Positions 3,352 to 14,907 of a stretch of 64,000 bases of DNA are shown piece after piece. The first letter of the stretch is position 1, and every line of letters begins with the position of its first letter. The notes beneath the pieces were generated by a model. That model was given only the letters and a program-made list of their open reading frames with translations, did no database searches and was not told the DNA's origin. A program made the position numbers and the translations under genes. The stretch lies in NCBI GenBank assembly GCA_965223415.1, contig OZ245002.1:4224001-4288000 (forward strand). The letters are read 5' to 3'. Origin of the DNA: Myxococcota bacterium. GTDB taxonomy: Bacteria > Myxococcota_A > UBA9160 > UBA6930.

Positions 3352-5259
3352 CTAGGCGGGGAGGATTCGTGCGCCCGCTACCCGGCGGATGCGTCGCCGG
3401 GCTCGCAGCGGCAGGTGTCCGAGCGAGACGGCGAGCCAGTCGTGGGGAAAGGTCACCTCGTCGAAGAGGCGGCGGAGAACGTCTGCTTCGTGAAAGGCGC
3501 CCTGGAAGCGCCACCAGGCCTTGCGCTCGATCTTCACCGCGATCAGGTACTGCGGGTGTTCCGCGAGGTGCTTCAGCTCGCGGCGCACGAGGTAGGCGCG
3601 CGTGATGCCGCCCGCCTCGCGCAGCTGGCTCACCAGGCGCTCGACGATCGGGTTCCCCAGCTCGTGGGGCGCGAAGCGCGTTTGCGCCCCGATGGACTCG
3701 CGCTCGGCGGCGGCCTCGTCGAGGGATTCCTGCTGCTGTAGGAGGTCGACGTGGATGGCGTCGGCCCGGGAGCCCTCGCCGGTCTCGCGCCACCACTGCT
3801 GCTGCAGAGCCGTGAACGCCGGCCCGTGGACCGGGTCGTTCTGGGCGGCGCGCTCCGCCCAGCCGAGGCAAGCCGCGTCGCCGTCGTCGTAGAGGAGCGT
3901 CGCGAGCCAGAGGCAGGCGTCGGCATGGTCCCCGTGGCGGGCCAGGAAGTCCTCGAGGGCGCCGCGACCCGCCTCAGGGCCCTCGCGCTGGGCGATCAGG
4001 CCCACGTGCTCCCACTCCTCCTCCACCTCGAGCGGCGGCCCGGACCCGGCGGCCCGACGGGCGAGCTCGCTGGCGCGCTCGTGGGCGGCCGCGGCTTGCC
4101 TACGCGCCTCCTCCCAGGTCTCGTCCATCTCCTTCCTCGCCTCGGCGTCACCGGTGGCGACCAGGGCGGAGGGATCCGCTGCGAGCTGTTCGATGGCGTT
4201 GGGACCGGCGGTGGCGGCGAGCAGCGCCAGAGCGCGGTCCACCGCGGCTTCGGGCTCCGCGTTCCGATCGACGATCCGGAGCTCGCGGAGGCGATCGAAC
4301 AGGGTCGGATGGGTGTCCTCCAGGTCCGTCGACTCGCCATAGGCGGCGCGCAGCGCTCGCCGCACGAGCGGCCCGTCCTGGGGCTGGCTCCGCAGGAACG
4401 CCACGGCGCGGGTCATCGCGTCCGCCGGCGGCTCCGGGTCCATCGCCGTGGTGCGGGCGAACTCCTCGACGAACCGGGTCTCGAAGCCGGTCGCGCCGAG
4501 CTGGATGCGCACCAGGGCCGCCCCGACGGCTTCCCTTCCGACCGTCTCCGCCGCATGGGCGTCCGCCTCGAACTCCTGGCGCCGTCCGTGCACCGACATG
4601 GCCGCGGCGAGTCGGGCGCCGAACAGCAGGTCGAAGGGCACCAGCAGGAGCCCCGGCAGCCCGGCGTGGCGCAGGGCGTTCCAGGACTCGCCGAAGCGGT
4701 AGAGGGAGGGGCCCCAATGGCCGTGCCGTTTCGCGAAGTGGGCGAGCTCGTGGGCGACGATCGCCCGGGCGGTGCCGAGCGGGACGACGGCCAGGAGGGG
4801 AAGGCCCAGCACGAGGTGATGCCGCGCGAAGCCCGCGAGACCGAAGAGCGGGCGCTGGGAGGCGGCCGCGTTGAACTGGCCGTCGAGCCACACCGAGCTC
4901 AGCTCGCCGACGCCCATCCTGCGCCGCAGGTCGTCGAGCAGCTCGAAGAGCCCCGGTGCATCTTCCGGCGCGAGCCGGTGGCCCCCCGGGCCTTGGACCT
5001 TCGAGACCAGCCCGACCGCCGCCGAGAAGAGGCCCAGCACCGAGAAGATGCCCACGAGGGCCAGGGCGCCCGAGCCCCCGCCCGCGGCGAAGGTGGCCAC
5101 GACCCACGCGGCGACCCCGGCGAGCAGCGCCAGCACACCGGCGAAGTAGATCAGCGCCCCGCCCACCAGGAGCCCCAGGCGGCGCCGGAAAGCGGCCGGC
5201 GCGTGGACCGAGAGCTGGGTGTACTGCTCCACCAGGCCGTGGAATCGGATGCGGCTCAC
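3352..5259 (-). CDS. M48 family (HtpX-like) membrane zinc metallopeptidase with helical/TPR-like C-terminal region
   Basis: TM helices, FNAAA, AHELAH zinc motif, QEFEAD, THPTLFDRL; GTG start with GGAGG RBS. Confidence 0.85.
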   Translation of the reverse strand: MSRIRFHGLVEQYTQLSVHAPAAFRRRLGLLVGGALIYFAGVLALLAGVAAWVVATFAAGGGSGALALVGIFSVLGLFSAAVGLVSKVQGPGGHRLAPEDAPGLFELLDDLRRRMGVGELSSVWLDGQFNAAASQRPLFGLAGFARHHLVLGLPLLAVVPLGTARAIVAHELAHFAKRHGHWGPSLYRFGESWNALRHAGLPGLLLVPFDLLFGARLAAAMSVHGRRQEFEADAHAAETVGREAVGAALVRIQLGATGFETRFVEEFARTTAMDPEPPADAMTRAVAFLRSQPQDGPLVRRALRAAYGESTDLEDTHPTLFDRLRELRIVDRNAEPEAAVDRALALLAATAGPNAIEQLAADPSALVATGDAEARKEMDETWEEARRQAAAAHERASELARRAAGSGPPLEVEEEWEHVGLIAQREGPEAGRGALEDFLARHGDHADACLWLATLLYDDGDAACLGWAERAAQNDPVHGPAFTALQQQWWRETGEGSRADAIHVDLLQQQESLDEAAAERESIGAQTRFAPHELGNPIVERLVSQLREAGGITRAYLVRRELKHLAEHPQYLIAVKIERKAWWRFQGAFHEADVLRRLFDEVTFPHDWLAVSLGHLPLRARRRIRRVAGARILPA

Positions 5260-5409: not shown

Positions 5410-6219
5410 ATGGAGGACTTCGAAGGCCGGATCGCCGTGGTCACCGGCGGCGCCAGCGGCATCGGGCGGGGCATCGCCGAGGCGCTCGCCGCCGAAGGGG
5501 CCCACGTCGTCGTGGCCGACATCGACGAGGCGAGGGCGGGGGACACCGCCGAGGGCCTTCGCGGGCGCGGCGTGCGGAGCTTCGCCGTCCGAACCGACGT
5601 GCGCGACACCGCTTCCGTCGACGATCTCGCCGCCGCGACGCTGAAGGAGTTCGATGGCGTCGACCTCCTCGTCAACAACGCCGGCGTCTACCTCGGCGGC
5701 GAGATGCGCGATGTCACCGAGGACGACTGGCGCTTTGTCCTGGGCGTGAACCTGGACGGCGTGTTCCGGGTCGGACAGACCTTCTCGCGAATCCTCCGCG
5801 AGCAGGGCCGCGGCGGCCACGTGGTGAACACGGCCTCGGTGGGCGGCTTCGTCGCCCACGGCGCCGGGCTCGCCTACGGCGTCAGCAAGTTCGGCGTCGT
5901 GGCGTACAGCGAGGCAATGCGGGCGGACCTCGAGCCCGAGGGGATCGGCGTCTCGACCCTTTGTCCGGGGCCGGTGGCGACCAACCTTCCCGCCTCGGAT
6001 CGGCTGCGCGGTGCCCAGGAGGCGGCCGGCGGCTTCTCCGAGGCCCTCTCTCCCTTCATTCGCGAAGGCCTCTCACCGGAGGAGGTGGGGCCGATCGTGC
6101 TGCGCGGTATCCGCGCCAATCTGCCCTACATCTTCACCGACGACAGCCTGCGCGAGCTCTTCGCCCAGCGCTTCCAGACCATCCTGGCCGGCTTCGACCA
6201 GATCACGCCGCCCGCCTAG
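5410..6219 (+). CDS. Short-chain dehydrogenase/reductase
   Basis: TGGASGIG, NNAG, YGVSK motifs. Confidence 0.95.
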   Translation: MEDFEGRIAVVTGGASGIGRGIAEALAAEGAHVVVADIDEARAGDTAEGLRGRGVRSFAVRTDVRDTASVDDLAAATLKEFDGVDLLVNNAGVYLGGEMRDVTEDDWRFVLGVNLDGVFRVGQTFSRILREQGRGGHVVNTASVGGFVAHGAGLAYGVSKFGVVAYSEAMRADLEPEGIGVSTLCPGPVATNLPASDRLRGAQEAAGGFSEALSPFIREGLSPEEVGPIVLRGIRANLPYIFTDDSLRELFAQRFQTILAGFDQITPPA

Positions 6220-6250: not shown

Positions 6251-7138
6251 ATGGACATCGGGCGGGTGGGCGTGTGGAGCCGGACCGACGGCCTCTCGGC
6301 CGGCGAAGCGGCGGCCTTCGCCCGGCGCGTCGAGGCCCTGGGCTACGGCGCCCTCTGGATCCCCGACGCCTTCGGACGCGATCCCTTCGCCCATGCCGGC
6401 TGGCTCTTCGCCCACACCGAGCGCCTGGTGGTGGCGACCGGCGTGGTGAACATCCATCTCCGGGAGGCCCAAGCGACGGCCTGCGCTCAGCGTGAGCTGC
6501 ACGACCAGTCAGGCGGGAGGTTCCTTCTCGGTCTGGGCGTGTCCCACGGCACCGTCGTGGAGGCGATGTTCCGCAAGGCGTACCCGAAGCCCGTGCCGAG
6601 CATGCGCGAGTACCTGGACAAGCTCGACGCCGCGCCCTGGTGGGGTCCCGCCCTGGAGGGCGAGCCGCCCATCGTGCTGGCCGCCCTCGGGCCGCGGATG
6701 CTGGAGCTGGCCGCCGAGCGGACCTGCGGCGCCCACCCCTTTTTCGCGCCGCCCTCGAACACCGCCCGCTCCCGCGAGATCATGGGCCCCGGCCCCTGGC
6801 TGTGTCCCGAGCAGAAGCTCCTGCTCGAGACCGATCCCGAGAAGGCGCGAGCGCGCGCTCGGAAGTCGATGGCCGGGCCCCTCGGCATGCCCAACTACCG
6901 CCGGAACCTGGTTCGCGCGGGCTTCGCCGAGCACGAGCTCGACCAGTGCGGTAGCGACCCGGTCGTCGACGCCGTGGTGGCCTGGGGCGACGTGGACGCT
7001 CTCGTCCGCCGCGTCCAGGAGCACCTGCACGCGGGCGCCTCCCATGTCTGCATCCAGCCCCTGTCCGTGGACGATCCGGCCCGACCCGACGTGGAGCTGC
7101 TCGAGAAGCTCGCGCCGCGTCTGTGCGGAGGCGGTTAG
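6251..7138 (+). CDS. LLM-class, probably F420-dependent, oxidoreductase
   Basis: VEALGYGALW, VATGVVNI, GRFLLGLGVSH, LAALGPRMLELA, HLHAGASHVCIQ. Confidence 0.85.
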   Translation: MDIGRVGVWSRTDGLSAGEAAAFARRVEALGYGALWIPDAFGRDPFAHAGWLFAHTERLVVATGVVNIHLREAQATACAQRELHDQSGGRFLLGLGVSHGTVVEAMFRKAYPKPVPSMREYLDKLDAAPWWGPALEGEPPIVLAALGPRMLELAAERTCGAHPFFAPPSNTARSREIMGPGPWLCPEQKLLLETDPEKARARARKSMAGPLGMPNYRRNLVRAGFAEHELDQCGSDPVVDAVVAWGDVDALVRRVQEHLHAGASHVCIQPLSVDDPARPDVELLEKLAPRLCGGG

Positions 7139-8436
7139 GCGGCCGGTCGCACCGGCAGCCGATGGATCGCGGACACGTGCAGGTTCGGCACCCGCTCCGG
7201 CGGCCCGGCGGCCTCGAAGCGGTGCAGGATCGGGATGAGCGCCCGGAGCGCCGCCCGCAGCTCCCAGCGCGCCAGGTTCGCGCCGAGACAGAAGTGGGCC
7301 CCGAAGCCGCCGAAGGCCAGGTGGTGGTTCGGCCAGCGGGTGACGTCGAAACGGTAGGGATCCGGGAAGACGGTCTCGTCGCGGTTGGCGGACGGGTACC
7401 ACATGCCCACGTCTTCGCCGGCGCGGATGCGCGTGTCGGCGATCTCGATGTCGCGCACTGCGGTGCGGGCGAACTGGACCACCGGCGACGTCCAGCGCAG
7501 GATCTCCTCGGCGGCGGTCGCCACCAGGTCCGGGTTCCCGCACAGCAGGTCGCGCTGCGCCGGGTGCTCCAGCAGCGCGGAGACCCCGCCGCTGATCGCG
7601 TTCTGGGTGGTCTCGTTGCCCGCCGCCAGGATCACGAACAGGAAGCCCTGGAGCTGCTGCTCGGTCAGCGGCTTGCCGTCGACCCGCCCGTGCACGATCA
7701 CGCTCGAGAGGTCGTCGCCTCCGGGGCCCCGCGCCCGCCGATCCCGGGCGAGCTCCACCATGTAGTCGGTGATCTCTCCGTAGGCCCGGGCCACGCCCTG
7801 GTTGCGCTCCTCGCCCGGCTCGAAGAAGCCCGGCTCCGGCGCGCCGATGAGCACGTTGGTGAGCTGTTTCAGTCGCATCCAGTCGCCGGCGGGCAGGCCC
7901 ATCATCTCGCCGATGGCGGCGAGGGGGAGCTTCTGGGCGAAGCTCCGGACGAAGTCGCAGAGCTCACCCTCCTCGGCCGCTCGCTCGAGCTCCGCGGCGA
8001 ACTCGTCGGCGAACTTCCGCGCCAGATCGTCGAAGTGCCCCTCGAGCTTGCGCAGGGCCGCGGGGGTGAAGCGCCGCGCCACCACGAGCCGGAACTCGCG
8101 GTGGCGCGGGTCGTCCATGTAGATGAAGTCCGGCGGTTCCTTCGGGTCCCAGCCGTGGGCCTCGGTCCGCAGGCGCATGGAGGTCTCCATGCGCGCGTCC
8201 TCTTCGCGGGTCATGAGGCGCAAGCGCCGGCTGTTCACGAAGACGTCGGACCGGCGCGAGACCTCGAGCACGTCCGCGTGGCGGGTGATCGCCCAGAATG
8301 GCGCCATCTCTTCCCGCTCGTACCAGAACACCGGGGCCTCCCGGCGCAGCAGGTCCCACTCCCGCCAGGGGTAGCCCTCGCGCACGTAACGGTCGGTGCT
8401 GTGGATGTCGAGGGTCGCAAGCGTCGGCTCGGGCAT
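7135..8436 (-). CDS. Cytochrome P450
   Basis: AGNETT I-helix, EEILRW ExxR, FGGFGAHFCLG heme-binding motif. Confidence 0.95.
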   Translation of the reverse strand: MPEPTLATLDIHSTDRYVREGYPWREWDLLRREAPVFWYEREEMAPFWAITRHADVLEVSRRSDVFVNSRRLRLMTREEDARMETSMRLRTEAHGWDPKEPPDFIYMDDPRHREFRLVVARRFTPAALRKLEGHFDDLARKFADEFAAELERAAEEGELCDFVRSFAQKLPLAAIGEMMGLPAGDWMRLKQLTNVLIGAPEPGFFEPGEERNQGVARAYGEITDYMVELARDRRARGPGGDDLSSVIVHGRVDGKPLTEQQLQGFLFVILAAGNETTQNAISGGVSALLEHPAQRDLLCGNPDLVATAAEEILRWTSPVVQFARTAVRDIEIADTRIRAGEDVGMWYPSANRDETVFPDPYRFDVTRWPNHHLAFGGFGAHFCLGANLARWELRAALRALIPILHRFEAAGPPERVPNLHVSAIHRLPVRPAA

Positions 8437-8500
8437 GGGGCCACTGTGGGCTAGAATGCCCGCTTCGTCCAGAAGGCCGGGCTCGGCCGGGAGGCATCTC

Positions 8501-9382
8501 ATGGCGACCGCTCTCGCATCCGACGTGCTCGAGGTCACGCGTCTCACGGGCTCGCTCGGCGCCGAGGTCCGGGGAATCGCCCTGGGCCAGGCCGGTCCGG
8601 AGGAGGCCGAGGCGCTGAAGGAGCTGATGGCGGAGCATCTGGTCCTCTTCTTCCCGGACCAGCACCTCACGCCCGACGCCCACATTGCCTTCGGGCGCCT
8701 CTTCGGGGAGCTCGAGGCCCACCCGAACCTCCACCTCGACGCCGAGCGGCCCGAGTTCTTCGAGCTCCACGCCACCGGCGGCGCCGGCGCCATCGCCGAC
8801 GAATGGCACAGCGATCTCACCTGTCAGGAGGAGCCGTCGGTGATGGCGATCCTGCAAATGGTGAAGTGCCCGCCCTTCGGCGGTGACACGCTCTGGGCGA
8901 ACGCCTACAAGGCCTACGACGAGCTCTCGCCGCCGATGAAGGAGCTCTGCGAGGGGCTCACCGCTCTCCACGACGCCCATCCCCACGGCAAGCCAGAGAA
9001 CATGGCGATCCATCCCGTCGTGCGAACCCACCCGGTGACCGGCCGCAAGTCCCTCTTCGTGAACGAGCACTTCACCCGCCGCATCGTCGAGATGGGCCAC
9101 CAGGAGAGCGAGGCCCTGCTCGGGTTCCTGACCGGTTGGATCACGAGCCCGAACTTCACGGTCCGCTACCACTGGAGCGAAGGCACGATCGCGATGTGGG
9201 ACAACCGCTGCACGCAGCACTGCGTGCTGAACGACTTCGAGGGTGAGCGGGTCATCCAGCGCGTCACCGTGATGGGCGATCGGCCCGAGGCCGCTGCTCC
9301 GCTGCGCTGGGAACCCTTCGTCAAGCCCTTCAGCGCCGCGAGCCGGCACGACCGCCAGCTCAAGACGTTCCTGCACCGCTAG
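8501..9382 (+). CDS. TauD/TfdA family Fe(II)/2-oxoglutarate dioxygenase
   Basis: WHSD, GGDTLWA, HPVVRTHPVTGRKSLFVN, WDNRCTQH. Confidence 0.93.
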   Translation: MATALASDVLEVTRLTGSLGAEVRGIALGQAGPEEAEALKELMAEHLVLFFPDQHLTPDAHIAFGRLFGELEAHPNLHLDAERPEFFELHATGGAGAIADEWHSDLTCQEEPSVMAILQMVKCPPFGGDTLWANAYKAYDELSPPMKELCEGLTALHDAHPHGKPENMAIHPVVRTHPVTGRKSLFVNEHFTRRIVEMGHQESEALLGFLTGWITSPNFTVRYHWSEGTIAMWDNRCTQHCVLNDFEGERVIQRVTVMGDRPEAAAPLRWEPFVKPFSAASRHDRQLKTFLHR

Positions 9383-11495
9383 GCGGATCGCCCTGCGGGC
9401 GCGCCAGGCCCTGGGGCGTGAGCTCGGCCTCGGCGGGAACCGCTTCGCCCGCCAGGATCGCCTCCACGCGATCGAGCAGCTCCGGCAGCGGGTAGGGGCG
9501 CGCCGGGTGGCCGGTGAAGGGCTCGGTCGTCACGAACGGCTGGGTCAGGAAGCGGAGGAGCCTCTGGGCGCGCGCGGTCTCCTCCGGATCCGCGTCGGCG
9601 ATCGTCGCCGGATCCGGAAGCGCGAGGTCCGGGTCGCACCGCTCGTAGTCGATCAGGAGCGCCCGGGCTCGCTCGGACACGCGCGCATGTCGCGGGCTCG
9701 CGAACGCTCCAGGCTCGCTGCGGACGTGGCTGCCGACCGGATCCACGGCCGGATAGAGGCCGCGCCGGGCGCGTCGCCGGTCGAGGGTGACCCGCGCGTC
9801 CCAGGGAGCGACGAGGGCCGAGCGGCCATCCTCCTCCTGGTTCTCGAACGGGGAGACGACGAGCGTGGTCATGGATCCAGCCGGCGCCGGCGTCCGCAAG
9901 CGGGTGAAGCTCGCCTCAGCGTCGATCTCGAATCCCGTCTGCGTGAGCAGGACGACGAGCACGTCCCGCCCCTCTTTCCGAAGCTCCTCGGCGTGGTCGA
10001 TGCCTTCCGCGAAGGTCTTGCGACGGGCGTCCGGCGGGTTCTCCCGGGGCGCGAGGTGCACGGCCACGTTCCGGGCGAGTCCGGCCTCCCGTAGCTCCGC
10101 CCGCAGGTCGTCCGGGTCGAAGGGGCCCTGGGCGATCCCGGTCCATAGCGCCGCCCCGTCGGGCCGGTTCGCCCAGCGATGGCTCAGCTCGTTCAGCAGC
10201 ACGACCATGCCGCAGCCGGCGCGGAAGGGGACCCGGACGAGGGCGCCGCGGGCGAGGGGCACGAACAGGTCCACCGCGCGGATGCCCGTCGCGGAGGTTC
10301 GCGCTTCCCCGGCCGGAACGGCCAGGGGACGGGGTGCCTCGTCCTCCCGCTCCGGAAGCCGCGCCGCGACCTGCGCGTGCCCCTTCGCCAGTGCCCAGGC
10401 TCGCGCTGTGCGTCCGGCCCGGTCGGGGAGGTCCGAGCGGGCGCCGTGCTCGAGCAGGAGGGCGACGAGATCCTCGCGTCCCCGCATGGCCGCCACGTGG
10501 ATGGGAGCGTTGCCCGTCGCCGCCCGCCGGTTCGGGTCGGCGCCGGCCTCGAGGAGCCGGCGTACGATCTCCATCTCCTCGAGGAGGACGGCGGCCCAGA
10601 GCGGGGATTCTCCGGTCGCGCATCCGCACCGCCCGTCGGCGACGGCGCCGCGAGCGAGGAGGAGCTCGGTCATGTCGAGGTCTCCCCGTTCGACGGCAGT
10701 GACGAGCGGCGTGGCCCGGGAGGCGAAGGGGAGCACGCCTTCGTAGACGAGCTCCGGATCCCAGCGCTGCTCCGTCTCCACGAGCTCCGGCATGCGCGTG
10801 AGCATGCGCGCTACCTCGTCGTGGTCGCCCGCGCGAAGCGCGAGAAAGAACTGCACGGCAGCGCTGAAACGCGGGTCCCGGGAGGGGCGCAGGGGTGTGG
10901 GCTCGGCCATGGGGTTCTCCTCCGATCCCGGCGCACCGGGCTCGCCGGGCAATGGGTAGGCCTCCCGGAGCCGCGCCCTGGCCCTTCGCAGGCGCTTCTT
11001 CAGGCTCGGCAACGAGAGCTCGAGGAACGATGCGAGGGCCGGCTGCGGCTCGCCGGCGAAGTAGTGGAGGACGAGGGGGAGGCGTTCGGACCGGGGCAGG
11101 GCCTCGACGGCACGCCGGAGCTGCTCGGCCTCGCGCCGGTCCTCGAGAGCGGCGTCGGGCAGGGGGCCGCTCGCCGTTCTCTCGCGGGGCTCCCGAGTGG
11201 CCACCTCGAGTCGTCCGCGGCGCGTCACCCGGTCGCAGTGCTTGAGCACGATGCGCCGGAGCCAACCCGGGAAGGCCGCCGGCTCCTCGAGCTGCCGAAG
11301 GGCGACGTGGGCGTTCGCGAAGCTCTCCTGGGCCACGTCCCGCGCGAGCTCGATGTCACCCAGCCAGCCGAAGGCCGTCCCCACGACCATGTCCTGGAAC
11401 GCGACGACCAGCTCGCCGAAGGCGGCCAGCTCCCCGGCCTGGGCGCGCTCGACCTGGGCGACGTAGGGCTGGGGGCTTGCGTCGGGTTCCTGCAT
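9360..11495 (-). CDS. ECF sigma-70 factor fused to ankyrin repeats and a degenerate F1-ATPase beta-like domain
   Basis: Sigma region 2 (ARDVAQESF...FPGWLRRIV), region 4 (LKKRLRRARARLR), ankyrin repeats (TPLVTAV, SPLWAAV, APIHVAA), AtpD-like TGIRAVDLF, GLYPAVDP, RFLTQPF..TEPFTG. Confidence 0.85.
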   Translation of the reverse strand: MQEPDASPQPYVAQVERAQAGELAAFGELVVAFQDMVVGTAFGWLGDIELARDVAQESFANAHVALRQLEEPAAFPGWLRRIVLKHCDRVTRRGRLEVATREPRERTASGPLPDAALEDRREAEQLRRAVEALPRSERLPLVLHYFAGEPQPALASFLELSLPSLKKRLRRARARLREAYPLPGEPGAPGSEENPMAEPTPLRPSRDPRFSAAVQFFLALRAGDHDEVARMLTRMPELVETEQRWDPELVYEGVLPFASRATPLVTAVERGDLDMTELLLARGAVADGRCGCATGESPLWAAVLLEEMEIVRRLLEAGADPNRRAATGNAPIHVAAMRGREDLVALLLEHGARSDLPDRAGRTARAWALAKGHAQVAARLPEREDEAPRPLAVPAGEARTSATGIRAVDLFVPLARGALVRVPFRAGCGMVVLLNELSHRWANRPDGAALWTGIAQGPFDPDDLRAELREAGLARNVAVHLAPRENPPDARRKTFAEGIDHAEELRKEGRDVLVVLLTQTGFEIDAEASFTRLRTPAPAGSMTTLVVSPFENQEEDGRSALVAPWDARVTLDRRRARRGLYPAVDPVGSHVRSEPGAFASPRHARVSERARALLIDYERCDPDLALPDPATIADADPEETARAQRLLRFLTQPFVTTEPFTGHPARPYPLPELLDRVEAILAGEAVPAEAELTPQGLARPQGDPPSGAGTS

Positions 11496-11655
11496 GACGT
11501 GGGAGAGGACCCGGTCGAGGGCCGGGCGGATACCCCCGAGAACGGCCCCGGCTTCCTTCGGCCGCCTGCAGAGGGTAGGCGAGCGGCGCCCGGGTGGGGA
11601 CCCCGCCCGCGCGGCACCAGGGCGGCTGGCATCCACCATCGCCTAGACTGCCCGG

Positions 11656-12492
11656 ATGGCCATCCTCGACGACAAGGTGGCGATCGTCACCGGCGCAGCC
11701 TCGGGCATCGGCAAGGCGACGGCGCAGCTCCTGGCCAAGGAGGGCGCTGCGGTCCTGGTGGCCGATCTCGACGAGGCCGGCGCCAAGACGGTGGCCGGCG
11801 AGATCGCCGACGCCGGCGGCCGCGCCCTGGGTCACGCCGTCGACGTCTCGGACGAGGCGGCGGTGCGGGGGATGATCGACGCCGCCGTGGCGGCCTTCGG
11901 CGGCCTCGACGTCCTGCACAACAACGCGGCGGCCATCGGCGCGGCGAGCCCCGGCCGGGACATGGACGTCGCCGCGATCGACGTCGAGGTCTGGGATCGC
12001 ACGATGGCCGTCAACCTGCGCGGCGTCATGCTCGGCTGCAAGCACGCGATCCCCCGGATGCTCGAGCGCGGCGGGGGGGCCATCGTCAACACCTCGTCGG
12101 GCTCCTCCCAGCGCGGCGACCTGACGATCCCCTCCTACGCGGTCTCGAAAGGCGGAGTCGACACGCTGACCCTCTACGTCGCCGCCCAGTACGGCAAGCG
12201 CGGCATCCGCTGCAACGCCATCGCCCCGGGCTTGATCCTGACCCATCCGGTGGAGCAGTTTGGTGGTGCCGAGTACGTCGGCATGCTGGAGGAGCACCAC
12301 CTGACCCCCCGGGTCGGACAGCCGGAAGACATCGCCCAGGCCGTCCTCTTCCTCGTTTCCGACGCCGCCGGGTTCATCACCGGCCAGATCGTCAACGTCG
12401 ACGGTGGCATCCTGAGCCATGCGCCGCCGGTCGCGGACATTCGGCGCATGGCGGCGATGGCCGCCTGGGCGAAGCAGGCTCCGAAGGGGTAG
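11656..12492 (+). CDS. Short-chain dehydrogenase/reductase
   Basis: TGAASGIG, NNAA, YAVSK, NVDGG. Confidence 0.95.
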   Translation: MAILDDKVAIVTGAASGIGKATAQLLAKEGAAVLVADLDEAGAKTVAGEIADAGGRALGHAVDVSDEAAVRGMIDAAVAAFGGLDVLHNNAAAIGAASPGRDMDVAAIDVEVWDRTMAVNLRGVMLGCKHAIPRMLERGGGAIVNTSSGSSQRGDLTIPSYAVSKGGVDTLTLYVAAQYGKRGIRCNAIAPGLILTHPVEQFGGAEYVGMLEEHHLTPRVGQPEDIAQAVLFLVSDAAGFITGQIVNVDGGILSHAPPVADIRRMAAMAAWAKQAPKG

Positions 12493-12606
12493 GGCGCGCC
12501 CCGGGGCCCGCTGGCGGCGGACGGGATTCGTGGCTACCACGGGCTGGGCGCGGCCGTCCCGCGCTTCCCGACCCTACCCGACGCGAACCGAACTGGAGAC
12601 GCACCC

Positions 12607-12903
12607 ATGCCTGCCTACCTGATCGTGAACTACAAGGTCGAGAACCCGGAGCTCTACGGCGAGTATGCCGCCGCAGCCGGGCCCGCCATGGGGATCGGCG
12701 ACCAGTGCCAGCTGCTGGCGTTCGACGCCAAGTCGGAGCAGATCGAAGGCGAGGACGCCGGCCACCAGACCGTGCTCCTCAAGTTCGACTCCAAGGAGAA
12801 GGCCCGCGAGGTCTACGAGTCCGGTGACTACCAGGCGGTGGTCGGCAAGCGGCTCGAGGCCACCTCCAGCCACTTCGCCATCCTGGTCGACGGAATGGCC
12901 TGA
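12607..12903 (+). CDS. DUF1330 family protein
   Basis: MPAYLIV..., IEG, VLLKFDSKEKAREVYESGDYQ pattern; GGAG RBS. Confidence 0.85.
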   Translation: MPAYLIVNYKVENPELYGEYAAAAGPAMGIGDQCQLLAFDAKSEQIEGEDAGHQTVLLKFDSKEKAREVYESGDYQAVVGKRLEATSSHFAILVDGMA

Positions 12904-12904
12904 A

Positions 12905-13702
12905 GTGCGGCTCGAAGGCAAGGCGGCCATCGTCACCGGCTCCGCTCGCGGCACCGGCGAGGCCATCGCGCGGCTCTTCGTGGAAGAGGGCGCCCGGGTG
13001 ATGGTGTCGGACGTGCTTCACGACCGCGGCGAGGCGCTGGCCAAGCATCTCGGCGAGGCGGCGATCTACCAGCCGCTGGACGTGTCCCAGGCCCGCGACT
13101 GGGACACGGCGGTCGCCCGTGCGCGGGACGTGTTCGGAGGCATCGACGTGCTGGTGAACAATGCGGCGGTGCTGGTCATCCGGGGCATCGAGGACACGCA
13201 GCCCGAGGAGCTCGAGCGGCTCTTCCGCGTGAACCAGCTCGGCCCCTTCCTCGGCATCCGTGCCGTGGCCGGGCCGATGCGCGAGCGCGGCGGCGGGGCG
13301 ATCGTGAACGTCGCCTCCTCCGATGGCGTGAAGGGGATGAACGGCGTCGTCGGCTACGCCTCCACGAAGTGGGCCCTGCGCGGCATCACCAAGGCCGCCG
13401 CCATGGAGCTCGCGCGCGATCGCATCCGCGTCAACGCGGTGTGCCCCGAGGCCGGCAACCACGAGATGTCCGCCCCCTTCCTGCCCGCGGGCATCGACTC
13501 GCGTATGGCTGCCGAGCACAACGTGGGGCAGCTGCTGCGCCCGCCGGAGGGCTACGACCTCGACGACCACGTGCGCGACGTGGCGCGCGCCGTGCTGTTC
13601 CTGGCCTCGGACGACTGCCCCACTGCGACCGCCGCCGATCTCGTCGTCGACGGTGGCCTCACGGCCGGCTACATCCAGCGCGGGCTGCCCGGCTCCGATT
13701 GA
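12905..13702 (+). CDS. SDR oxidoreductase (3-alpha/20-beta-hydroxysteroid dehydrogenase-like)
   Basis: GTG start, RLEGKAAIVTGSARGTG, NNAA, YASTKWALRG. Confidence 0.9.
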   Translation: MRLEGKAAIVTGSARGTGEAIARLFVEEGARVMVSDVLHDRGEALAKHLGEAAIYQPLDVSQARDWDTAVARARDVFGGIDVLVNNAAVLVIRGIEDTQPEELERLFRVNQLGPFLGIRAVAGPMRERGGGAIVNVASSDGVKGMNGVVGYASTKWALRGITKAAAMELARDRIRVNAVCPEAGNHEMSAPFLPAGIDSRMAAEHNVGQLLRPPEGYDLDDHVRDVARAVLFLASDDCPTATAADLVVDGGLTAGYIQRGLPGSD

Positions 13703-13703
13703 C

Positions 13704-14165
13704 TCAGCCGGGGGGCTCGCACACGAAGATCGGGATGTCCCGATCCGTGCGTTCCCGGTACTCGGCGTAGGGTGCGTAGTGCTGGTCGCAGAGGGGCCAG
13801 AGCGCGGGCTTCTCCTCGGCGCCCGCCAGCCGCGCCCGCAGCTTCATCTTGCGCCCCCGGTGGTTCACCTCGATGTCAGGGTGCTTCACCAGGTTGCCGT
13901 ACCACACCGGATTCTTCGGCGCTCCGCCCTGGGAGGCCACGAGGAGAACGCCCTCCCCGTAGGGCACGTACATCAGCGGGATCGTGATGCGCTTCCCGCT
14001 CCGGGCACCGGTCATCGTGACGAAGCACACCTCGTCGCCGCCGAGGGTGTTGAGGAAGCGTCCGCCGAAGAGGCGGTGCAGGAAGACGTGGGTGCGGGTC
14101 ATCGTCTTCAGCACCCAGCGCGGCGGCGGCGAGCCGGATCCGGAAGAGGGGGCTTCGCTGGCCAT
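13704..14165 (-). CDS. Deazaflavin (F420H2)-dependent nitroreductase family (DUF385/Ddn-like)
   Basis: TGARSGKR..PL, VASQGGAPKNPVWYGNL, YRERTDRDIPIF. Confidence 0.92.
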   Translation of the reverse strand: MASEAPSSGSGSPPPRWVLKTMTRTHVFLHRLFGGRFLNTLGGDEVCFVTMTGARSGKRITIPLMYVPYGEGVLLVASQGGAPKNPVWYGNLVKHPDIEVNHRGRKMKLRARLAGAEEKPALWPLCDQHYAPYAEYRERTDRDIPIFVCEPPG

Positions 14166-14217
14166 GGGAATCCTCCGAGGGGTAGAGTGACGGCGCTCCC
14201 AGGAGGCTACCGCACAG

Positions 14218-14907
14218 GTGAACCCCTTCCCGGCGTTGCGGGGCGATGCCGCGCTGGCCGTCTACCTCGATCTCAAGAGCCCCTACGCGTTCATCGCCTT
14301 GGAGCCCACCCGCGCCATGGCCCGGGCGGCAGGCGTCGCGATCGACTGGCGCCCCTTTACCCTCGACATCCCCAGCTACCTGGGCTCGGCGCGCCTCGAC
14401 GGGAAGGGCCGCGTCGCCGAGAGCCGGCGCACGCCCCAGCAGTGGACCGGCGTGCGCTACGCCTACCGGGACGCGCGTCGCTACGCGAGCCTGCGTGGCA
14501 AGACGCTGCGGGGCACGGTCAAAATCTGGGACTCGAGCCTGGCGGGCATCGCCATGCTGTGGGCCAAGCAGCAGGGCCCCGAGCGCTTCGACCGCTTCGT
14601 CGACGAAGCCTACGCCCGCTTCTGGCGGCGTGAGCTCGACATCGAGGACGCGGGCGTGCTCGAGGCGCTGCTGGCGGAGACCGGCGCCGACGCGGCGGGC
14701 TTCCACGCCTTCGCCGACGGCCCCGGCCGCGCGGCCCACGACGTCCTGAACCAGGCCGCCTTCGACGCCGGCGTCTTCGGTGTCCCCACGTACCTCGTCG
14801 GAGACGAGATGTGGTTCGGCCGCGAGCACTTGCCGCGGGTCGCCTGGCTGCTGGGCGGTGCCGTCGGTCCTGCGCCCGAAGCGGCGAACCGGAGCTTCGA
14901 CCCGTGA
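14218..14907 (+). CDS. DsbA-like / 2-hydroxychromene-2-carboxylate isomerase (GST kappa) family protein
   Basis: DLKSPYAF, GVFGVPTY, WFGREHL. Confidence 0.85.
   Translation: MNPFPALRGDAALAVYLDLKSPYAFIALEPTRAMARAAGVAIDWRPFTLDIPSYLGSARLDGKGRVAESRRTPQQWTGVRYAYRDARRYASLRGKTLRGTVKIWDSSLAGIAMLWAKQQGPERFDRFVDEAYARFWRRELDIEDAGVLEALLAETGADAAGFHAFADGPGRAAHDVLNQAAFDAGVFGVPTYLVGDEMWFGREHLPRVAWLLGGAVGPAPEAANRSFDP

Follow-up and report, generated by a model that had tools for sequence, protein, structure and literature searches.

An ECF sigma factor family with ankyrin repeats and a degenerate F1-ATPase beta domain

A 64,000-nucleotide stretch of a Myxococcota genome (contig OZ245002.1, forward-strand positions 4,224,001 to 4,288,000; here called the window) carries a gene for a 711-residue protein in which a sigma factor of the extracytoplasmic function (ECF) type is joined to ankyrin repeats and to a C-terminal domain resembling the beta subunit of F1-ATPase, hereafter pseudo-beta. 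The gene lies at 9360..11495 on the minus strand, with its stop codon at 9360-9362. Four findings are held with high confidence: the architecture itself, its conservation among relatives, the loss of the active site from the pseudo-beta domain, and a conserved ECF-type promoter ahead of the gene. On balance, these data suggest a self-contained, autoregulated ECF sigma factor in which the ankyrin/pseudo-beta extension probably serves as a regulatory module in place of an anti-sigma factor.

Architecture and conservation of the fusion protein

Pfam searches identified Sigma70_r2 at residues 29-93 (11217-11411 (-); 26.7 bits against a cut-off of 24) and Sigma70_r4_2 at residues 124-176 (10968-11126 (-); 35.9 bits against 25.7), and the NCBIfam model TIGR02937 (sigma70-ECF) was matched at 56.5 bits, above its cut-off of 42.9. 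Neither the Pfam nor the NCBIfam scan matched sigma region 3 or 1.1 in the protein. With only regions 2 and 4 and a family model passed, the gene product belongs by sequence to the ECF (group 4) sigma-70 factors. Pfam, NCBIfam and an AlphaFold model together placed the sigma domain at residues 1-180 (10956..11495 (-)), with a low-confidence linker between sigma2 and sigma4 in the model (residues 97-106).

Some 530 residues follow sigma region 4. The ankyrin domain occupies residues ~208-380 (10356..10874 (-)); Pfam ankyrin families span residues 261-380 (Ank_2, E = 4e-18), and the model contains four canonical helix pairs with N-terminal capping helices, in line with the four or so repeats counted in an earlier note on this DNA. 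The pseudo-beta domain occupies residues ~397-684 (9444..10307 (-)) and consists of a nucleotide-binding-domain fold and a C-terminal helical domain, without the N-terminal barrel. Pfam ATP-synt_ab was found at residues 404-516 (E = 2e-14), with a second stretch, and a PDB sequence search aligned residues ~397-684 with F1 beta residues ~129-437 (2qe7_D, 9e-32). The nearest NCBIfam models for the C-terminus were alternate-F1 beta (8e-33) and atpD (5e-28), with FliI reaching just 1e-10; the equivalog models were not passed (TIGR03305, 113.8 bits against a cut-off of 752; TIGR01039, 98.1 against 462.85).

The full-length AlphaFold model, built from a 62-member family alignment, had a mean pLDDT of 87.7 and a pTM of 0.86. 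Confidence was low at residues 97-106 and in the tail, 697-711, and was also lower in two inter-domain linkers. For a protein of four linker-joined domains these values are high, and a packed arrangement would be compatible with them. When the model was compared with the PDB using Foldseek, the top matches listed were F1 beta-type chains only, at 7e-15 and below, with a TM-score on the target of ~0.5 over ~330-350 columns; the ESM Atlas returned generic ATP-synt_ab clusters alone. A complex prediction of residues 1-185 against 200-696 from family alignments scored 0.19 against a mark of 0.32, and weighs neither way. The earlier note had read a single 711-aa frame holding sigma regions 2 and 4, then ankyrin repeats and lastly an AtpD-like C-terminus, and had set the AtpD similarity as a test. 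The Pfam, NCBIfam and PDB searches agree with that frame, the peptide strings that it quoted are all present in the translation, and the AtpD similarity was recovered by both sequence and structure.

A word-indexed search with the whole protein listed 120 clusters, 62 of which share the sigma, Ank and PF00006 (ATP-synt_ab) architecture at 34-67% identity over 91-98% of the query, with two shorter matches at 76% and 80%. Source names were given for few clusters and were Myxococcota, Pseudomonadales and Acidimicrobiia. Queried with the C-terminal 320 residues, an exhaustive search without profiles retrieved 1519 representatives at E <= 1e-3, of which 37 reached E <= 1e-30; GxxxxGK[ST] occurred in just 20 of the 146 retrieved C-terminal matches (the top 150 minus four already in the set). 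A scan of one genome per species with the sigma part gave 447 loci, from which 80 of ~20 kb each were kept and used for all locus counts below. Full-length matches were found in metagenome-assembled genomes (MAGs) labelled Gammaproteobacteria/Pseudomonadales, Chloroflexota (Caldilineaceae, Anaerolineae, Ardenticatenaceae and Herpetosiphonaceae), Gemmatimonas (Gemmatimonadota) and Myxococcales (Myxococcota).

That the fusion arose by chimeric assembly, or that the gene is a non-functional pseudogene in decay, deserves almost no credence. Two relatives are indeed broken, one in several frames (L076:9998-12199) and one by an in-frame stop inside pseudo-beta (L053:9908-12223), and these are either pseudogenes or assembly errors. 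Against this, the 62 listed clusters come from independent sources and several phyla, so that the fusion is not confined to this assembly; confinement to it, with reads not spanning the junctions, was an outcome that the earlier note had named as refuting its proposal. The family alignment has 17 invariant columns and many near-invariant ones, and the promoter is conserved. In the window, translation of 9360..11495 (-) gave 711 codons without any internal stop, and GC at the three codon positions is 0.80/0.54/0.88 in a genome of 71.6% GC, which is the profile of a real gene. The frame stays open upstream to an ATG at 11639 (759 aa). The proteins of 24 relatives, however, start 17-20 residues ahead of a conserved 'AF..L' motif in region 2, and the ATG at 11495 is therefore the likely start codon.

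Loss of the active site in the pseudo-beta domain

Four true beta subunits, recovered by the search that yielded the family members, served as reference in an alignment of the active-site positions. Walker A, GGAGVGKT in beta, reads FRAGCGMV in the window protein (residues 424-431, 10203..10226 (-)); this degenerate P-loop keeps the glycines, while Met stands in for Lys and Val for Thr. The catalytic GVGER of beta reads GIAQG, so that the catalytic Glu and Arg are lost. Walker B, DVLLFID in beta, reads DVLVVLL and is followed by a deletion of ~20 residues, and the adenine-stacking position Tyr345 is not retained. The degenerate Walker A and eroded Walker B described in the earlier note were thus borne out by alignment to true betas. 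Its further statement that the DELSEED loop and the N-terminal barrel are missing holds in part. The barrel is absent, as the alignment begins at beta residue ~129 and ATP-synt_ab_N was not matched. The DELSEED motif has also been lost, yet its helix-turn-helix segment remains and aligns (IADADPEE against LSDEDKL).

A residue census compared fused relatives of at least 600 aa (n = 108) with stand-alone pseudo-beta proteins of 320-380 aa (n = 26). The Walker A Lys was kept in 4 of 108 fused relatives (Met in 65) against 14 of 26 stand-alone forms, the catalytic Glu in 6 (Gln in 66) against 15, and the Walker B Asp in 23 (a gap in 51) against 15. Thr was kept at the Walker A Thr/Ser position in 3 fused relatives, Val or Leu having replaced it, and neither residue was kept in any of the 26 stand-alone forms, a zero that holds by construction as this group was chosen as lacking K[TS]. 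The Walker B region was deleted in about half of the fused relatives, and their Tyr345 position held V in 25, Y in 13, I in 12 and P in 12. Since stand-alone forms retain more of the site than fused forms, the decay appears graded. Judged by these residues, the pseudo-beta domain is certainly not an ATPase.

Other positions in the pocket were far better kept. The two P-loop glycines were present in 101 and 108 of the 108 fused relatives and in 23 and 26 of the 26 stand-alone forms, and the two adenine-pocket Phe in 100 (the F418-equivalent) and 90 fused relatives and in 23 and 10 stand-alone forms (Tyr in 13 at the latter). This conservation would suit a nucleotide or energy-state sensor, in which the degenerate pocket binds an adenine nucleotide or metabolite without hydrolysis and its occupancy switches the sigma factor. 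The frequent retention of Lys, Glu and the Walker B Asp in stand-alone and split pseudo-betas argues in the same direction, and sister fusions with the cofactor-binding folds GNAT and PheRS-alpha-like, described below, fit a metabolite-sensing theme. It is the fused forms that make such a sensor unlikely: there Met has mostly taken the place of Lys, Val or Leu that of Thr, and Gln that of Glu. The same forms have a deletion in the Walker B strand region and do not conserve Tyr345.

The best-conserved motifs of the domain, TGIKALDLFAPL.RGG, L.PAIDP..S.S and RLL.YL.QPF...EPFTG, are specific to beta and lie outside the catalytic residues. Such a pattern could point to a docking module, with pseudo-beta binding the alpha, gamma or epsilon subunit of the cell's own ATP synthase, or forming a beta-like ring, so that the sigma factor would be tethered or released by the assembly or state of the ATP synthase. 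A sister group of ankyrin-less sigma/pseudo-beta proteins of ~546 aa even retains the beta N-terminal region, which in F1 forms the crown that holds the ring together. The window protein, however, has neither the barrel nor the DELSEED motif, and in none of 31 genomic contexts (defined below) does the family gene lie beside atp genes. We regard docking to F1 as highly improbable.

Promoter, genomic context and further features

On sequence evidence, an ECF-type promoter lies at 11508..11533 (-), with a -35 element GTATCC at 11533-11528, a 15-nt spacer and a -10 element GGGTC at 11512-11508. The motif was first seen by eye in aligned sequences of 130 nt upstream of the start codons. It reads GGTATCC-N15-GGGTCTTAT in the window and in a gammaproteobacterial clade, and GTAACCTTT...TGGGACTTAT in Chloroflexota and others. 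For counting, the strict pattern GTA[AT]CC-N14-16-GG[GC][AT]C was used on both strands. Of the 80 loci, 48 had it upstream of the sigma gene at a distance of up to ~220 nt, 45 of them with a 15-nt spacer, and elsewhere it occurred only 12 times in 1,259,424 bases (both strands); most of the remaining 32 loci had near-matches by eye.

The window contains a single exact copy of the motif, the gene's own. With 12 nt between the end of the promoter and the ATG, any leader would be very short or absent. Such a promoter on the sigma gene itself commonly marks positive autoregulation among ECF factors, and its conservation here suggests positive autoregulation of the family gene. A scan for sigma-70-type promoters gave no match. 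A palindrome-like sequence, GAAG(G/C)..(C/G)CTTC (TAGAAGGCCTTCA is one instance), immediately follows the -10 element on its 3′ side in several loci (L024:~5090-5105, L031:~1330-1345, L039, L063, L073 and about ten more). It occurs in members from Chloroflexota, Acidobacteriota, Bacillota and Latescibacterota, is found neither in the window nor in the gammaproteobacterial clade, and might serve a second regulator as its operator. In another locus (L044, ~9900-9980), four tandem GATGAATGTACTA copies lie between a promoter remnant and the sigma gene start.

Neighbouring genes were clustered from the open reading frames (ORFs) of the 30 loci, out of 80, that have a full-length family gene, together with the window, making 31 contexts. 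Across these 31 contexts, no gene near the family gene was conserved across phyla and no anti-sigma candidate was found. A long extension after region 4, with no anti-sigma gene nearby, would on these sequences place the protein among 'one-component' ECF factors. The claim of the earlier note that the gene lies outside any atp operon also holds, as a true beta used as tblastn query matched this gene alone in the 64-kb window.

In the window the sigma gene stands alone, with both flanking genes on the opposite strand. Upstream is a divergent SDR gene (11656-12492 (+)), and downstream a convergent TauD-family gene (8396-9382 (+)) overlaps the 3′ end of the sigma gene by 23 nt. The divergent SDR gene recurs in five gammaproteobacterial MAG loci and in L053; its ORF is intact in four of those five and in two pieces in L076. 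It was considered as a conserved target and rejected, as its identity to the window SDR (35-38%) is near that among the window's own SDR paralogues (33-34%). Around the sigma gene, the region 7135-14907 is a run of redox and oxygenase genes encoding a P450, a TauD-family dioxygenase, two SDRs, a DUF1330 protein, an F420H2-dependent quinone reductase and a DsbA-like protein, with a third SDR in the window at 5410-6219. The motif scan of the window found the sigma promoter motif on none of the redox/oxygenase neighbours at 7135-14907.

Within the ankyrin domain, a loop carries a CxC motif, C290-G-C292 (10620..10628 (-)), with both Cys present in 52 of the 62 aligned family members. Cys87 in region 2 (11235-11237 (-)) is present in 49 of the 62 and co-occurs with CxC in 48. 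These residues could form a metal or redox site; ankyrin-only relatives, however, keep the Cys87 equivalent without any CxC, and the co-occurrence count is confounded by relatedness. A weak NCBIfam match to MzaA raised the possibility of a defence system. This was rejected, as the PADLOC matches (PDC-M72A, Ankyrin) and the best MzaA stretch cover ankyrin residues only.

Split relatives and the role of the extension

In four loci (L018, L061, L045 and L035), sigma-ankyrin and pseudo-beta are encoded by separate genes on the same strand. In L018, a TAG closes the sigma-ankyrin ORF and AAGGAG-N7-ATG comes next; the second protein starts MTTFSPAYAAALGRIIDPAGQPIDGKGPL, which matches the stretch of beta immediately following the barrel. 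In L061 the stop and start overlap as ATGAGTGA, behind GAGGAGG, so that a ribosome-binding site is visible in two of the four. The second gene of L045 has its own Met in another frame and overlaps the end of the first, and that of L035 begins a few nt after the first stop, also in another frame, with a Met immediately after. The C-terminal-domain search further returned ~20 representative clusters of stand-alone pseudo-beta proteins of 340-375 aa, and 11 of 37 Pfam-scanned proteins, at 335-391 aa, had ATP-synt_ab with at most its C-terminal domain. The split gene pairs indicate that pseudo-beta is a separable partner of the sigma-ankyrin protein. Sigma operons usually carry an anti-sigma gene in the position that the split pseudo-beta gene takes, and this resemblance supports the regulatory reading of the extension.

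A quick maximum likelihood tree of 72 sigma domains, midpoint-rooted for drawing only, contained a branch with 98% SH-aLRT support that separates 39 genes without pseudo-beta from 33 others. All genes linked to pseudo-beta fall on the latter side, 22 of them fused, 4 split, 2 broken and 3 truncated at contig ends, and the window gene was placed among the gammaproteobacterial fused forms. Ankyrin-only sigma relatives are 370-790 aa long. In 11 sigma-ankyrin-only loci (L016:4818-5609, L029:11249-12019, L048:11232-12026, L054:11288-12103, L065:11157-12041, L068:11281-11946, L074:3591-4256 and four more), a second, pure-ankyrin gene of 221-314 aa lies immediately downstream, confirmed as ankyrin-only by Pfam in seven; it occupies the place of pseudo-beta in the split forms. 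One sigma of the same clade, in a Latescibacterota MAG (L078:3231-4382), is fused to a FliM (flagellar switch) domain, and two sigma relatives (L050 and L077) have unassigned extensions.

Domains in the wider clade were surveyed by a region-restricted search, using precomputed Pfam lists for the 104 nearest sigma-domain relatives. GNAT fusions formed six clusters (P0277-P0279, P0281, P0282 and P0284), four of them also with PF11954; fusions with PheRS-alpha-like PF01409 formed eight (P0275, P0306-P0308, P0311, P0313, P0314 and P0316), and a fusion with HEAT and PF09860 formed one. Pseudo-beta without ankyrin was found in 14 clusters, most of those checked being ~520-551 aa long, with the beta N-terminal region kept and a P-loop AGENGAGTTVVM. 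Large internal deletions were seen in ankyrin-less sigma/pseudo-beta fusions (P0285, P0289, P0292-P0295, P0299-P0301, P0304, P0305 and P0309), of which P0285 retains the Walker A Lys.

The GNAT and PheRS-alpha-like fusions suggest that this sigma clade has a habit of capturing enzyme folds. In its broadest form, a clade united by a GTAACC-N15-GGGAC promoter would have repeatedly captured decayed core housekeeping enzymes, for instance F1-ATPase beta (barrel kept or lost), a PheRS-alpha-like core and GNAT, as regulators, C-terminal or in trans, and pseudo-beta would report on the energy machinery. It could do so through adenine nucleotide or phosphate in the remnant pocket, or through docking to ATP synthase. 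We consider this extended proposal quite doubtful. If true, transcription would be wired directly to the state of ATP synthase, a coupling of the F1 fold with RNA polymerase for which no description was found.

For the window protein, we favour the following mechanism. The N-terminal 180 residues would form a normal sigma2-sigma4 module, recognizing GTAWCC-N15-GGGWC(TTAT), one copy of which would drive the sigma gene itself. The C-terminal 500 residues, ankyrin and the F1-beta-derived domain, would stand where other ECF sigmas have an anti-sigma factor. Pseudo-beta would be a non-enzymatic binding or sensor domain, kept close to the sigma module by the ankyrin repeats, and access of sigma2 and sigma4 to RNA polymerase would be under its control. 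The extension would be inhibitory, in the manner of an anti-sigma factor, until a ligand or protein signal relieves the inhibition. This is in keeping with the published view that, where an ECF factor has no anti-sigma factor, an extension typically does its work, some extensions having originated when the two were fused (PMC8999054). The one-component regulator with a dead beta fold put forward in the earlier note stands as regards a conserved single-polypeptide ECF sigma, a dead F1-beta fold and no conserved anti-sigma neighbour; a regulatory role for the extension is one that we, too, infer, while the nucleotide or energy-state sensing and the F1 docking that it suggested are the two functions judged unlikely above. 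The autoregulatory promoter, the split gene pairs and the variety of C-terminal domains in the sigma clade go beyond that note.

Several points weigh against this mechanism. Pseudo-beta was similar to no known anti-sigma domain in any of the searches run. Some sigma-ankyrin relatives have no pseudo-beta, so it is not essential to the clade. No regulon member beyond the gene itself was found in the window or the ~20-kb loci; for a second target in the window, there were two matches with one mismatch, bringing the total at up to one mismatch to three against 2.76 expected, which is chance level. The remaining difficulty concerns sign. ECF42-type extensions are needed for activity and are not inhibitory, the ECF42 TPR extension being essential (PMC8999054), and a stable, integrated fold would agree with the high pTM obtained for the whole protein. 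An activating scaffold, required for activity or stability of the sigma factor and differing from the favoured mechanism in sign only, is accordingly a possible though somewhat unlikely alternative. The split order, with the sigma first and a coupled partner second, tells against it by resembling sigma/anti-sigma pairs, but does not decide the sign.

The F1-ATPase beta fold is among the most conserved enzyme folds. The family adds an unexpected module to the ECF sigma factors, a dead F1-ATPase beta fold reused as a probable transcription regulator in several phyla. It also offers a clean case of a housekeeping subunit becoming a pseudoenzyme, as Lys, Glu and Asp each survive in over half of the stand-alone forms and almost never in the fused ones. 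A predicted target promoter, natural split versions, and variants with or without ankyrin or the beta barrel provide experimental handles. ECF sigmas with built-in extensions are viewed as the sigma-factor counterpart of one-component systems, and the majority of their groups have yet to be studied.

Among known systems, F1 beta (AtpD, including the alternate N-type) shares with pseudo-beta the nucleotide-binding and C-terminal domain folds and the beta-specific motifs. Pseudo-beta differs in having no barrel, Walker A Lys/Thr, catalytic Glu/Arg, DELSEED motif or atp operon, and in its deletion after Walker B. Sigma/anti-sigma operons are matched by the split relatives, whose pseudo-beta gene is on the same strand and overlaps or closely follows the sigma-ankyrin gene, but differ in that pseudo-beta matched no known anti-sigma domain in the searches run. 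By promoter, the closest described relative is probably ECF264, compared here by its description in the available part of the PMC7826278 supplement and not taken to be this gene's family. ECF264, a Paenibacillaceae group, carries a DUF1835 extension of ~350 aa and is associated with no anti-sigma factor; regulation by that extension has been proposed. The ECF264 promoter has a -35 GTAACCTT and a -10 GGCACATT. According to that description, both groups have no anti-sigma gene and the promoters are nearly the same (GTAACCTTT ... GG[G/C]ACTTAT here), while the window copy reads GTATCC / GGGTCC. The hosts belong to different phyla, and DUF1835 was absent in the window protein (Pfam, E <= 1) and in the 104 nearest sigma-domain relatives.

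The earlier note did not recognize a characterized ECF group in this protein. The searchable literature likewise gave no description of a sigma/ankyrin/ATP-synthase-beta fusion, part of the ECF supplements not being covered. The available text describes at least 26 ECF groups with extensions (PMC7826278, PMC8999054), and an ankyrin or ATPase/ATP-synthase extension is absent from the main text of PMC7826278, from the searched part of its supplement, and from PMC8999054 as far as available. Relative to the known extension-bearing groups, the present family is set apart by an extension made of ankyrin repeats and a dead F1-beta domain, which in some lineages is a separate downstream gene.

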